DNA from: Escherichia coli
Lineage (GTDB): Bacteria; Pseudomonadota; Gammaproteobacteria; Enterobacterales; Enterobacteriaceae
NCBI RefSeq assembly: GCF_044324875.1
Contig: NZ_CP172185.1
Strand: one strand, 5' to 3'
Length of the DNA stretch: 64,000 nt
Position numbers and translations under genes: made by a program. The notes beneath the pieces are model-generated. The model did no database searches. It saw only the letters and a program-made list of their open reading frames with translations, and had not been told where the DNA came from. Every line of letters starts with the position of its first letter. Positions within the stretch are counted from its first letter, which is position 1. Shown piece by piece: positions 15,768-62,216 of this stretch.

Positions 15768-16964
15768 ATGCTAAAAGTGTTATTGCTCTTTGTTTTGCTG
15801 ATTGCGGGGATAGTGGTTGGCCCGATGATTGCCGGACACCAGGGTTACGTGCTGATCCAGACCGACAACTACAATATTGAAACCAGCGTCACTGGCCTGG
15901 CGATTATTTTGATTCTGGCAATGGTAGTGCTGTTTGCCATTGAGTGGCTACTGCGGCGGATCTTCCGCACAGGCACACACACCCGTGGGTGGTTTGTCGG
16001 ACGTAAGCGTCGCCGTGCCCGTAAGCAGACCGAACAGGCGCTGCTGAAACTGGCGGAAGGCGATTATCAGCAAGTTGAAAAGCTGATGGCGAAAAATGCC
16101 GATCACGCTGAACAACCGGTGGTGAACTATCTGCTGGCTGCCGAAGCCGCGCAACAACGCGGTGATGAAGCACGCGCCAACCAACATCTGGAACGCGCAG
16201 CGGAGCTGGCCGGCAACGACACAATTCCGGTAGAAATCACCCGTGTACGTCTGCAACTGGCCCGTAATGAAAACCATGCAGCACGTCACGGCGTTGATAA
16301 GCTGCTGGAAGTTACGCCACGCCATCCGGAAGTATTACGTCTGGCGGAACAGGCGTATATCCGCACTGGTGCATGGAGTTCGCTGCTGGATATCATCCCA
16401 TCAATGGCAAAAGCCCACGTTGGCGATGAAGAGCATCGTGCAATGCTGGAACAACAGGCATGGATTGGCCTGATGGATCAGGCGCGTGCCGATAACGGTA
16501 GCGAAGGTTTGCGTAACTGGTGGAAAAACCAAAGCCGGAAAACGCGTCATCAGGTGGCGTTACAGGTGGCAATGGCGGAACATCTTATTGAATGTGACGA
16601 TCATGATACTGCCCAGCAAATTATCATCGACGGCCTGAAACGCCAGTATGACGATCGCCTGCTGCTGCCGATCCCGCGTCTGAAAACCAATAACCCGGAA
16701 CAGCTGGAAAAAGTGCTGCGCCAACAGATCAAAAACGTGGGCGATCGCCCGTTGTTGTGGAGCACACTGGGTCAGTCGCTGATGAAGCACGGCGAATGGC
16801 AGGAAGCATCGCTCGCCTTCCGCGCGGCGCTGAAACAACGTCCGGACGCCTACGATTACGCATGGCTTGCCGACGCGCTGGACAGACTGCACAAGCCGGA
16901 AGAAGCCGCAGCGATGCGTCGCGATGGCTTGATGTTAACGTTGCAGAACAACCCGCCACAGTAA
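15768..16964 (+). CDS. hemY: HemY, TPR-containing heme biosynthesis-associated membrane protein
   Basis: 398-aa ORF with N-terminal TM helices; last gene of hemCDXY. Confidence 0.9.
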   Translation: MLKVLLLFVLLIAGIVVGPMIAGHQGYVLIQTDNYNIETSVTGLAIILILAMVVLFAIEWLLRRIFRTGTHTRGWFVGRKRRRARKQTEQALLKLAEGDYQQVEKLMAKNADHAEQPVVNYLLAAEAAQQRGDEARANQHLERAAELAGNDTIPVEITRVRLQLARNENHAARHGVDKLLEVTPRHPEVLRLAEQAYIRTGAWSSLLDIIPSMAKAHVGDEEHRAMLEQQAWIGLMDQARADNGSEGLRNWWKNQSRKTRHQVALQVAMAEHLIECDDHDTAQQIIIDGLKRQYDDRLLLPIPRLKTNNPEQLEKVLRQQIKNVGDRPLLWSTLGQSLMKHGEWQEASLAFRAALKQRPDAYDYAWLADALDRLHKPEEAAAMRRDGLMLTLQNNPPQ

Positions 16965-16970
16965 TCTATA

Positions 16971-17000
16971 TCGCCTCGTTCAGAGGCGATATTTTTTTAC
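16971..17000 (+). terminator. Intrinsic terminator after hemY
   Basis: Hairpin atcgcctcgttcagaggcgat followed by a T-run. Confidence 0.75.
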
Positions 17001-17004
17001 CAGG

Positions 17005-17604
17005 ATGTCAAAATTGCGCACGCCGTCCCGCTATCTTTTTCGCTTGCCATCGCATGAAATTACTCCTTTTCGGGCAACGCTCTTTTTAATCTTGTTGATA
17101 TGTGCCGCTCTGGCTGGCGTAAGTTGGCTGATTATTTCCTTTGTGCGTACGGGCAATACATTCATCTTCTGGTTAACACTTTTTATTGGGTATCTGATAG
17201 CTGCGGCGAAGCAGGAAAAAATCAAGCTCCTCAAGAAGTACCGAATCATGGCAGATAAACGTCGGGGACGCTCCATTTGCCAGTTCGCCCGCGAATTTGA
17301 CACCTACACCGTAGATACATGGGTGATTCGTGCGGTGTGGGATACCTTGCAAGGAAACGGTTATATCGATTACCCACTGCCACTGAAAGCCGATGATATA
17401 CTGGACGATGATCTGGATTTGGTGAGCGACGCAGTCGAGTTAGAAGAGCTGGTTGAAGATACCGCTGCTCGTTGCGGGCGCGATCTATGCGGAATAGAAG
17501 AGAATCCGTTTCTTCCCATCGTCACGGTAGGCTCTCTTGTAAGAGTGTTAAACGCGCAACCGATGACCCAGGAGCGACGTAACCAGTTCTTTATCCGGTC
17601 ATAA
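17005..17604 (+). CDS. Hypothetical protein (199 aa), predicted membrane-anchored with acidic C-terminal region
   Basis: Uninterrupted ORF with coding-like composition; hydrophobic N-terminal segments; acidic stretch DDILDDDLDLVSDAVELEELVED; weak RBS at 17005; stop abuts the glmZ terminator. Confidence 0.4.
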   Translation: MSKLRTPSRYLFRLPSHEITPFRATLFLILLICAALAGVSWLIISFVRTGNTFIFWLTLFIGYLIAAAKQEKIKLLKKYRIMADKRRGRSICQFAREFDTYTVDTWVIRAVWDTLQGNGYIDYPLPLKADDILDDDLDLVSDAVELEELVEDTAARCGRDLCGIEENPFLPIVTVGSLVRVLNAQPMTQERRNQFFIRS

Positions 17605-17809
17605 AAAAACGCCTGCTCTTATTACGGAGCAGGCGTTAAAACAGGTCTGTATGACAACAAGTGGGTGCTTCACTCAACGTTGTGTCCATGGTGTCTGATG
17701 AGGCATAAGCGACATCTGTCAGTGGACGATAAGCACCGTAAACGGCTCTGCGTCATTCCGGAGTTTATGAGGCACTAAGGCGAACATAAGAGATGGAATG
17801 AGCATCTAC
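17603..17809 (-). ncRNA. glmZ: GlmZ small regulatory RNA
   Basis: Minus-strand sequence matches remembered GlmZ from 5' GTAGATGCTCATTCCATCTC through the terminator GCCTGCTCCGTAATAAGAGCAGGCGTTTTTTT; lies between hemY and aslA. Confidence 0.8.
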
Positions 17810-18233
17810 TCGTTTATTATGCCACAGAGAACCGGGAAATAACATCCCTTAACACTTGTTATGAGATAATTCTGTAATCCTCTTTGCTTCCTGAGTAATA
17901 ACTTCCTGAGTGAATATTTCTCCTGCGCACGATTCTACACATATATATAATGAATAATAAAAGTCATTCAATTAATAACATATATATTAATTGCCGTTAA
18001 AACTAAAAACAGCATCAATAATCAACGCGATATAACATCACCGCCTTACATATCACCTGCGCCAGAGGTAGGATTGAAAACGCTCTCCTGATTTTCCAAT
18101 TCATTTTCTGGATAAATAAATAATTTATTTTTATCACTATTATTTATGCAATCATCCTGTCAGGGAGAGGGATCTCAATTATCAATGCTTAATTACGTCA
18201 TCATTTTGACGACATGAAACCGGAGCATTTTGC

Positions 18234-19889
18234 ATGGAATTTTCGTTTTCACCCAAACTTCTTGTTGTAGCTGTCGCCGCCGCTCTTCCTCTCATGGCCA
18301 GCGCAGCAGATACCCCGTCAACCGCCACCGCACGCAAAGGCTTTGCCGGATACGATCACCCAAACCAGTATCTGGTTAAACCGGCGACCACTATTGCCGA
18401 CAACATGATGCCGGTGATGCAGCATCCTGCACAAGACAAAGAAACCCAGCAGAAGCTGGCAGAACTTGAGAAAAAAACCGGTAAGAAACCGAACGTGGTT
18501 GTTTTCTTGCTGGATGATGTGGGCTGGATGGATGTTGGCTTTAACGGCGGTGGCGTGGCGGTGGGTAACCCTACACCAGATATCGACGCCGTTGCCAGCC
18601 AGGGGCTGATTTTAACTTCGGCGTATTCTCAACCGAGTTCTTCCCCAACCCGCGCCACGATTCTTACCGGACAATACTCCATCCACCACGGCATTCTGAT
18701 GCCGCCAATGTACGGGCAACCGGGCGGTCTGCAAGGGTTAACCACTCTGCCGCAGTTGCTGCACGATCAGGGCTACGTCACTCAGGCCATCGGGAAATGG
18801 CATATGGGGGAAAACAAAGAGTCGCAGCCGCAGAACGTTGGCTTTGATGATTTCCGCGGTTTTAACTCGGTATCCGATATGTATACCGAATGGCGTGATG
18901 TTCACGTCAACCCGGAAGTCGCCCTGAGCCCGGATCGTTCTGAATACATCCAAAAACTGCCGTTCAGCAAAGATGACGTTCATGCCGTGCGCGGCGGTGA
19001 ACAGGAAGCCATTGCCGACATTACGCCGAAATATATGGAAGACCTGGATCAACGCTGGATGGAATATGGCGTTAAGTTCCTCGACAAGATGGCGAAGAGC
19101 GATAAGCCTTTCTTCCTCTACTACGGCACTCGCGGCTGTCACTTCGATAACTACCCTAATGCGAAATATGCGGGTAGCTCTCCGGCGCGCACCTCTTACG
19201 GCGACTGCATGGTGGAGATGAACGATATCTTCGCCAATCTGTATAAAGCACTGGAGAAAAACGGTCAGCTTGATAACACGCTGATTGTGTTCACCTCTGA
19301 TAACGGTCCGGAAGCCGAAGTTCCGCCGCACGGTCGCACACCGTTCCGCGGTGCGAAAGGTTCTACATGGGAAGGCGGCGTTCGTGTGCCAACCTTCGTT
19401 TACTGGAAAGGCATGATCCAACCGCGTAAATCTGACGGCATTGTCGATCTGGCGGATCTCTTCCCTACGGCGCTGGATCTGGCGGGGCATCCTGGGGCGA
19501 AAGTAGCGAATTTAGTACCGAAAACCACCTTTATCGATGGTGTGGACCAGACATCTTTCTTCCTGGGAACAAATGGTCAGTCTAACCGTAAGGCCGAGCA
19601 CTACTTCCTCAACGGTAAACTTTCTGCTGTGCGTATGGATGAGTTCAAGTATCACGTCCTGATCCAGCAACCGTACGCGTATACCCAGAGCGGGTATCAG
19701 GGTGGATTCACCGGCACAGTAATGCAAACGGCGGGATCGTCGGTGTTTAACCTGTACACCGATCCGCAGGAAAGCGACTCTATCGGCGTGCGCCATATCC
19801 CAATGGGTGTACCGCTACAGACCGAAATGCATGCGTATATGGAGATCCTGAAAAAATATCCACCACGCGCGCAGATTAAATCTGATTAA
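18234..19889 (+). CDS. aslA: Arylsulfatase-family protein AslA
   Basis: 551-aa ORF with signal peptide and sulfatase motifs ([11 protein letters not shown] region). Confidence 0.9.
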
Positions 19890-21361: not shown

Positions 21362-21438
21362 TGGTCGGCGAGAGAGGATTCGAACCTCCGACCCACTGGT
21401 CCCAAACCAGTTGCGCTACCAAGCTGCGCTACTCGCCG
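21362..21438 (-). tRNA. proM: tRNA-Pro (anticodon UGG)
   Basis: Reverse complement gives CGGCGAGTAGCGCAGC...anticodon loop with TGG...TTCGAATCC...CCA. Confidence 0.9.
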
Positions 21439-21480
21439 AAATACTGCTTTTTGAATTTTTAGTTCAATTCTTTAAAGTCG

Positions 21481-21567
21481 TGGTGCGAGGGGGGGGACTT
21501 GAACCCCCACGTCCGTAAGGACACTAACACCTGAAGCTAGCGCGTCTACCAATTCCGCCACCTTCGC
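21481..21567 (-). tRNA. leuT: tRNA-Leu (anticodon CAG)
   Basis: 87-nt class II tRNA GCGAAGGTGGCGGAATTGGTAGACGCG...long variable arm...CCA. Confidence 0.9.
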
Positions 21568-21587
21568 ATTGTCACAACTTCTAATAA

Positions 21588-21664
21588 TGGGGTGGCTAAT
21601 GGGATTCGAACCCACGACAACTGGAATCACAATCCAGGGCTCTACCAACTGAGCTATAGCCACC
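21588..21664 (-). tRNA. hisR: tRNA-His (anticodon GUG)
   Basis: GGTGGCTATAGCTCAGTTGGTAGAGC...GTG anticodon...CCA with the extra 5' G. Confidence 0.9.
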
Positions 21665-21721
21665 ACTACAAATCTTGTTACGCGGTATTACTACCACCGC
21701 AGCTCAAGCGCCGGGACTAAA

Positions 21722-21798
<77 letters not shown>

Positions 21799-38082: not shown

Positions 38083-38412
38083 TTACGCCAGGTTAGCGTC
38101 GAGGAACTCTTTCAACTGACCTTTAGACAGTGCGCCCACTTTGGTTGCCGCCACTTCACCGTTTTTGAACAGCAGCAGAGTCGGGATACCACGGATACCA
38201 TATTTCGGCGCAGTGCCAGGGTTTTGATCGATGTTCAGTTTTGCAACGGTCAGTTTGCCCTGATATTCGTCAGCGATTTCATCCAGAATCGGGGCGATCA
38301 TTTTGCACGGACCGCACCACTCTGCCCAGAAATCGACGAGGATCGCCCCGTCCGCTTTGAGTACATCCGTGTCAAAACTGTCGTCAGTCAGGTGAATAAT
38401 TTTATCGCTCAT
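38083..38412 (-). CDS. trxA: Thioredoxin 1
   Basis: Translation [18 protein letters not shown]...WCGPC... (109 aa) matches TrxA. Confidence 0.97.
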
Positions 38413-38542
38413 ATATAACTCCACAGGAATAAGCCTGGCGTGTTGGTTTCGTTGTTGGTGTAACATTAACCAACTAAAGGTTGACTTTATTTCACCGGAT
38501 ACGCTTTCGTAAAGCAATAGTAAGCTGATATTCTACCACACT

Positions 38543-57075: not shown

Positions 57076-57083
57076 AATTAGGG

Positions 57084-57160
57084 TGGCGGAACGGACGGGA
57101 CTCGAACCCGCGACCCCCTGCGTGACAGGCAGGTATTCTAACCGACTGAACTACCGCTCC
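57084..57160 (-). tRNA. aspT: tRNA-Asp (anticodon GUC)
   Basis: GGAGCGGTAGTTCAGTCGGTTAGAATACCTGCCTGTCACGCAGG...CCGCCA. Confidence 0.9.
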
Positions 57161-57212
57161 ACCGAATTCTTTTACAACCACCGGTTTTATGACCGGCTTA
57201 CTGCTTAATTTG

Positions 57213-57332
57213 ATGCCTGGCAGTTCCCTACTCTCGCATGGGGAGACCCCACACTACCATCGGCGCTACGGCGTTTCACTTCTGAGTTCGGCATGGGGTC
57301 AGGTGGGACCACCGCGCTACGGCCGCCAGGCA
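57213..57332 (-). rRNA. rrfC: 5S ribosomal RNA
   Basis: 120-nt match to E. coli 5S rRNA (TGCCTGGCGGCCGTAGCGCGGTGG...GGAACTGCCAGGCAT). Confidence 0.95.
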
Positions 57333-57424
57333 AATTCTGTTTATCAGACCGCTTCTGCGTTCTGATTTAATCTGTATCAGGCTGAAAATCTTTCTCTCAT
57401 CCGCCAAAACATCTTCGGCGTTGT

Positions 57425-60329
<2,905 letters not shown>

Positions 60330-60513
60330 TCACAACCCGAAGATGTTTCACTTCAGAGTTGCGAAAATTTGAGAGACTCACGAACAACTTTCGTTGTTCA
60401 GTGTTTCAATTTTCAGCTTGATCCAGATTTTTAAAGAGCAAATATCTCAAACAAGACTTAACAGTCTGTTTTGAGATATTGAGGTCGGCGACTTTCACTC
60501 ACAAACCAGCAAG

Positions 60514-60589
60514 TGGCGTCCCCTAGGGGATTCGAACCCCTGTTACCGCCGTGAAAGGGCGGTGTCCTGGGCCTCTAGACGAAGGGGAC
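60514..60589 (-). tRNA. gltU: tRNA-Glu (anticodon UUC), 16S-23S spacer tRNA
   Basis: GTCCCCTTCGTCTAGAGGCCCAGGACACCGCCCTTTCACGGCGGTAACAGGGG...CGCCA. Confidence 0.9.
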
Positions 60590-60674
60590 GTATCAGTCTG
60601 CTTCGCAAGACGCCTTGCTTTTCACTTTCTATCAGACAATCTGTGTGAGCACTGCAAAGTACGCTTCTTTAAGG

Positions 60675-62216
<1,542 letters not shown>

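Follow-up and report, generated by a model that had tools for sequence, protein, structure and literature searches.

The glmZ small RNA gene in a stretch of Escherichia coli chromosome very probably has a single constitutive sigma-70 extended -10 promoter

In Salmonella, Yersinia and further genera, glmZ is known to have a sigma-54/GlrR promoter architecture, and the glmY gene of E. coli has one as well (PMC3045617). The question here is how the glmZ gene is transcribed in the 64,000-nucleotide stretch of DNA that we analysed (hereafter, the window). An earlier note, made from the letters of the window, had recognised glmZ on the minus strand and expected both GlrR/sigma-54 and sigma-70 elements upstream of it, in 17810-17900. 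It pointed to a TGGCA-like element there, and could not place a full -24/-12 pair. The window is E. coli DNA, with 99.8% identity to strain 042. A 901-base segment around glmZ, also 99.8% identical to strain 042, has matches in 5,425 of 5,426 complete E. coli genomes.

The covariance-model search that had been proposed as a check returned a match to RF00083 (Rfam GlmZ_SraJ) at 17603-17809 on the minus strand, far above the gathering score (218.4 bits against 60; E=3.4e-56), and this confirmed the gene call with exact coordinates. The match covers model positions 1-214 of 214, is not truncated, and was recovered again in a permissive local scan; beyond GlmZ, the Rfam scan found no RNA-family match in 16900-18300, even at E<=1. 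The RNA is identical at 207 of 207 nt to K-12 MG1655 3986432-3986638 (b4456; SraJ/RyiA). In the alignment its first nucleotide falls on the annotated K-12 start; the +1 base and the terminator are the same, and the RNA folds better than shuffled sequences (z = -3.3). The flanking genes are also oriented as in K-12: aslA is divergent upstream (from 18234, plus strand) and hemY convergent downstream (15768-16964, plus strand). This agrees with the synteny of the GlmZ_SraJ family, in which the hemCDXY operon converges on the gene and the upstream region is variable. In our survey of other genomes, all listed glmZ loci with an identified hemY had it in convergent orientation. The feature is an ordinary, well-studied E. 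coli small RNA gene with a known promoter, and in this sense it is already known. Further Rfam matches in the window, all on the minus strand, lie at 21365-21798, 38383-38482, 53492-53781 and 57003-62216; they comprise a four-tRNA cluster, the TrxA 5'UTR thermometer, a Rev39 5'UTR match and a complete rRNA operon with tRNAs and StyR-44, and are expected for such a part of the E. coli chromosome. The coordinates of the features discussed below are collected in Table 1.

Table 1. Features of the glmZ locus in the window, with promoter positions counted from the glmZ +1 and nucleotide (nt) numbers from the GlmZ 5' end.
Feature	Position	Strand	Basis or remark
Strain-variable 636-bp insertion, adjoining glmZ	16964..17599	+	replaces the 45-bp K-12 hemY-glmZ spacer
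Accessory ORF, 196 aa	17014-17604	+	'hypothetical' in the strain 042 annotation
glmZ, 207-nt primary GlmZ sRNA	17603..17809	-	RF00083, K-12 identity; +1 is G 17809, 3' end in U-tract at 17603
SL3, Rho-independent terminator	17603..17637	-	terminator scan, Rfam structure, fold
glmS-pairing site in single-stranded linker, nt 149-170	17640..17661	-	RNAduplex against the K-12 glmS leader
SL2, central stem-loop, nt 73-146	17664..17737	-	Rfam structure line; closing helix GGUGCUU/AAGCACC
SL1, 5' stem-loop, nt 1-65	17745..17809	-	Rfam structure line; core helix in MFE and centroid folds
-10 hexamer CATAAT, -12..-7	17816..17821	-	published motif match; invariant in four Escherichia sequences
Extended -10 TGG (TG at -15/-14, 17824-17823)	17822..17824	-	counted from +1; invariant in Escherichia
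G where K-12 has A, -23 in the promoter spacer	17832..17832	-	pairwise alignment
-35 hexamer ATGTTA, -36..-31	17840..17845	-	published motif match; conserved in Escherichia
Remaining aslA-glmZ intergenic region	17846..18233	.	no sigma-54, GlrR or exact IHF motif

In an alignment of 39 enterobacterial genomes, Gopel et al. (2011) found that the glmZ promoters of Escherichia and Klebsiella lack sigma-54, GlrR and IHF motifs and carry ATGTTA-N15-tggCATAAT instead (PMC3045617). This motif has a single exact match in the window, at 17816-17845 on the minus strand, with 0 expected by chance, and it ends 6 nt before the +1, as in an Escherichia-type sigma-70 promoter. The sigma-70 elements that had been anticipated upstream of glmZ are thus present as an exact copy of the published motif. 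The hexamers are separated by 18 nt. This promoter was missed by a scan for the general sigma-70 consensus, since ATGTTA agrees with the -35 consensus at no more than 3 of 6 positions; the promoter relies on its TG extension. The -35, TG and -10 elements are invariant across E. coli, E. albertii and one divergent Escherichia genome, and the invariant blocks of the Escherichia glmZ promoter are ATGTTA, TTTCCC and TGTGGCATAAT. Between -100 and +207 the sole difference from K-12, whose -35, TG and -10 are the same, is G for A at 17832 (-23). It creates a GG at -24/-23 in the window strain, within a stretch of the spacer that varies across Escherichia (GGTTCTC, GATTCTC, TGACCGC, GGCCCTG). Experiments in K-12 showed that mutation of CATAAT, mutation of ATGTTA or deletion to -20 abolishes expression, that promoter activity is kept after deletion to -40, and that the promoter is constitutive "under the tested conditions" (PMC3045617); a 2014 review describes the sigma-70 promoter of glmZ as active constitutively (PMC4152352). 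Given the sequence identity, promoter function and constitutivity would carry over to this locus from the K-12 and EHEC experiments.

The sole sigma-70 promoter might not be truly constitutive if a nucleoid protein or another regulator bound 17846-18233 and modulated glmZ under other conditions. We consider this unlikely. Constitutivity has indeed been claimed for the tested conditions only, but the same study found K-12 promoter activity intact without everything upstream of -40, and this region is therefore dispensable there (PMC3045617). The aslA-glmZ spacer, of 424 bp, is AT-rich (33.7% GC), and it contains five scattered IHF-like sites with one mismatch where 1.7 are expected, a number reached by 3% of shuffles, although mononucleotide shuffles are a weak control for the excess of such sites in an AT-rich region. 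Blocks at about -300..-200 from the glmZ +1 (about 18010-18100, minus strand) are strongly conserved across Escherichia, but they lie nearer the start of aslA and may serve that gene. A direct repeat, ACTCAGGAAG-ttatt-ACTCAGGAAG, at about 17890-17914 on the minus strand (about -105..-81), is identical in K-12; we rejected it as a regulator site because both E. albertii and the divergent Escherichia genome lack conservation of it and because it lies in the region dispensable in K-12. An ORF of 29/40 aa at 18015-18137 (minus strand) was judged non-coding, its start and a Trp codon being destroyed in the divergent Escherichia genome.

The single sigma-70 promoter also gives the TGGCA element its place. 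The string quoted for it in the earlier note, ctctgtggcataataaacg, lies at 17829..17811 on the minus strand, with its last base 2 nt before the +1 G. Its TGGCA occupies -15..-11 and consists of TGg followed by the CA of CATAAT, i.e., it is the extended -10, whereas a -24 box would be expected at -27..-22, its position where other genera have a glmZ promoter of the sigma-54 type. The element is therefore present, but not as a sigma-54 -24 box. The hesitation over the -24/-12 pair was justified, since none exists in the scans: TGGCAC-N5-TTGCA at <=3 mismatches has no match in 17810-17900, and across the whole window its 188 matches are below the 217 expected by chance. At the core position of a sigma-54 promoter, the best match has 6 of the 11 specified positions wrong, and GG-N10-GC is absent from the glmZ strand across the 424-bp aslA-glmZ spacer. 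The GlrR site TGTC-N10-GACA at <=2 mismatches is found 0 times in -424..-1, against 2.9 in shuffles of this upstream region, and thus also not in 17810-17900. The IHF consensus WATCARNNNNTTR has no exact match in the 424-bp spacer. A GlrR-activated promoter has three GlrR sites, typically at distances of 32 and 63 bp, and IHF sites between these and the promoter. The locus shows neither, and the IHF-like sites with one mismatch have nothing to assist without GlrR sites or a sigma-54 core. The GlrR/sigma-54 part of the expectation for this region is contradicted by these searches.

Two sigma-54-like candidates were rejected. The first, TGACAGGATGATTGCA at 18147-18162 on the minus strand, 338-353 nt upstream of the +1, has its essential GG broken, reads TTACA in K-12 and is not conserved in E. 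albertii; the spacer has no more matches of this type than chance would give (2 against 1.1). The second, a cryptic promoter made of the GG at -24/-23 and the GC at -13/-12, has N9 in place of N10 and its GG in the variable stretch of the spacer. Published experiments agree with the searches: GlrR did not bind the K-12 glmZ fragment -424..+32 in EMSA, K-12 glmZ expression is independent of sigma-54/GlrR (PMC3045617), and glmZ expression is unchanged in qseF and qseB mutants of EHEC (PMC3903284). By identity with K-12, GlrR would not be expected to bind here either. We therefore give almost no credence to a sigma-54/GlrR promoter at this glmZ with TGGCA as part of its -24/-12 architecture, for which the pentamer near the start, the GG and GC of the window strain and the use of such an architecture at glmZ by most enterobacterial genera (among the loci listed, and in PMC3045617) could be cited, but in which the pentamer is out of place, the GG-to-GC spacing is 9 where 10 is required, and the GG lacks conservation, with A in K-12 and other bases in E. 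albertii.

The negative result at glmZ has power because the same scans recover the sites of glmY and of other genera. We scanned a genome collection with a conserved GlmZ pattern, listed 72 enterobacterial glmZ and glmY loci anchored on their 5' ends, and ran a single script over the whole set as a positive control. Among the loci listed, a sigma-54 core with <=2 mismatches occurs in 21 of 23 glmY loci and, ending at -12, in 36 of the 47 glmZ loci from other genomes. GlrR sites accompany it in all but one of those 36, usually two or three of them, 32 and 63 bp apart. At K-12 glmY the script found GlrR sites at -230, -197 and -134 and a core that ends at -12 and has one mismatch. For the glmZ of the window and that of K-12, it gave a core with 6 mismatches, and GlrR sites were absent at <=2 mismatches. 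The paralogous glmY has the same CATAAT -10 as the glmZ of the window, but it keeps TGGCAC-N5-CTGCA and GlrR sites, whereas glmZ has none here. Two glmY-like loci of Edwardsiella ictaluri and E. hoshinae, classed by similarity only, have no sigma-54 core and no GlrR sites and in this differ from the 21 other glmY loci scanned.

The sigma-54/GlrR/IHF promoters of glmZ in Yersinia, Serratia, Enterobacter, Citrobacter and Salmonella (groups I and II of Gopel et al.) lead to an orthologous RNA with the same 5' end, GTAGATGCTCAT, as the promoter in the window. The latter differs from them in having no TGGCAC at -27..-22 and no GlrR or IHF sites, and its GC at the -12 element is shifted by one base. 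When the sequences are anchored at +1, identity to the sigma-54-type promoters in -17..-1 is 0.57 on average and 0.82 at most; upstream of -18 it is at background (0.25-0.29). The -10 segments can be aligned, with gTGCAATAAT-N6-G in the other genera against gTGGCATAAT-N6-G in the window, and the TGG here occupies the place of their sigma-54 -12 element GTGCA. The -10 region of Escherichia may thus be the surviving half of an ancestral promoter in which sigma-54 and sigma-70 elements overlapped, everything upstream of it having been replaced. Shared sigma-70 constraints could be an alternative source of the similarity in -17..-1.

Among the other genomes, the sigma-54/GlrR elements of glmZ look lost or degraded in Citrobacter youngae, Citrobacter sp. 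Cu233, Kluyvera genomosp. 1, Pseudocitrobacter faecalis, Superficieibacter electus and two Pluralibacter genomes. Degradation is partial in Phytobacter, where two GlrR sites are kept and the -24 box is lost, and Citrobacter werkmanii and Citrobacter sp. FP75 keep a TGGCAT core and have no GlrR sites. All ten of these loci retain a TGnAATAAT-like -10. Comparison of these promoter sequences suggests that the loss of sigma-54/GlrR elements at glmZ is wider than the two genera, Escherichia and Klebsiella, for which it was reported in 2011.

Between SL2 and the terminator, which begins at nt 173, the linker (nt 147-172) is single-stranded. The terminator, SL3, has an 11-bp stem (AACGCCUGCUC/GAGCAGGCGUU), an 8-nt loop and a U7 tail. 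We used the K-12 sequence of the glmS leader, since glmS falls outside the window. RNAduplex gives a duplex of -19.2 kcal/mol between linker nt 149-170 and positions -41..-21 of this leader, made up of an 8-bp and a 7-bp block; shuffled linkers equal this score in 5 of 1000 cases and the GlmY control duplex is weaker (-15.8 kcal/mol). A single-stranded linker complementary to glmS, the feature that discriminates GlmZ from GlmY, is thus present, and the pairing agrees with the published one, between a 15-nt site of GlmZ and leader positions -41..-19 (PMC4152352). Runs of RNAduplex with full-length GlmZ and the full leader gave meaningless all-over pairing, worse than shuffles, and the linker alone was used instead. 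In K-12, SL2 is the decisive element for RapZ binding, and the RNase E recruited by RapZ cleaves 6-7 nt 3' of SL2 (PMC6602413). SL2 probably has the same role here, its sequence being identical, and the cut would map to about 17656-17658, with loss of the glmS-pairing site. RapZ binding, RNase E cleavage and Hfq dependence would all be expected at this locus from the 100% identity with K-12 and the literature.

Downstream of glmZ the window departs from K-12. Homology with K-12 extends 3 nt beyond the 3' end of GlmZ and then breaks off until the stop codon of hemY; K-12 has 45 bp between the glmZ terminator and hemY, whereas the window has 636 bp with an extra gene. We regard the 636-bp segment as an insertion because most genera have a short spacer here. 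It occurs in 689 of 5,426 complete E. coli genomes (13%), always in single copy, and hemY lies under the segment match in every genome among the matches listed. There are two allele groups, which are about 88% identical, with flanks 97-99.7% identical. Between the alleles the reading frame is intact, the differences are distributed 17/17/40 by codon position and dN/dS is 0.27; the accessory ORF is, as judged from its sequence, a real gene under purifying selection. Its 196-aa product appears, by inspection, to have two hydrophobic, possibly transmembrane helices. Searches of Pfam, NCBIfam and PADLOC gave nothing above noise for this protein. Its relatives number 59 among 5.8 billion proteins, of which the named ones are all 'hypothetical' and most are from Escherichia; a few outside Escherichia, e.g., in Pseudomonas solani, have 32-39% identity.

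Among the glmZ loci listed, 10-100 bp usually separate the hemY stop from the glmZ terminator. In nine of them this spacer is 0.5-1.5 kb long (Enterobacter asburiae, Phytobacter, strain RIT691, Proteus, Providencia, Moellerella and Brenneria). These lineages have unrelated insertions at the same place, in which tblastn detects nothing similar to the accessory protein of E. coli, and the glmZ-hemY site appears to accept insertions repeatedly. In the window, the accessory ORF converges on glmZ and its stop codon overlaps the U-tract of the glmZ terminator. A terminator scan found no intrinsic terminator-like site 3' of the ORF on its own strand. In the approximately 13% of complete E. coli genomes with the insertion, transcription of the accessory mRNA could therefore conceivably continue into glmZ and yield RNA antisense to the 3' portion of GlmZ with its glmS-pairing site, which we hold to be quite improbable. 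If true, this would add a strain-specific layer of antisense RNA or transcription interference to GlmZ/GlmS control.

The reading that we favour, with a probability of about 95%, is that E. coli glmZ has a single constitutive sigma-70 extended -10 promoter, that its control is post-transcriptional, and that sigma-54/GlrR acts through glmY only. For this locus we obtained the RNA family, the identity with K-12, the promoter motif, the absence of the other motifs with positive controls, and the complementarity to the glmS leader. Under such a mechanism, sigma-70 RNA polymerase would recognise ATGTTA, the 18-nt spacer and TGgCATAAT, and would start at G 17809 to make the 207-nt GlmZ, ended by the intrinsic terminator. 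With Hfq, the linker (nt ~149-170) would pair with the glmS leader and so unfold the structure in which the ribosome-binding site of glmS is hidden. The control point would be the decay of GlmZ and not its transcription: RapZ would bring RNase E, which would cut just 3' of SL2, and the decoy GlmY would counteract this cleavage. The sigma-54/GlrR(QseF)/IHF input of Escherichia would act on glmY only.

Taken as a whole, the interpretation in the earlier note stands for the identity of the small RNA and for the sigma-70 promoter, and fails for sigma-54/GlrR control of an Escherichia glmZ. The correction is that such control of glmZ is genus-specific, and that annotating it in E. coli by analogy with other genera would be wrong. 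The broader loss of sigma-54/GlrR elements at glmZ would be an incremental point on the evolution of this promoter, not a new mechanism. In Escherichia, the envelope-stress two-component system GlrK/GlrR would reach GlmS through GlmY only, with GlmZ made constitutively and regulated by its decay.
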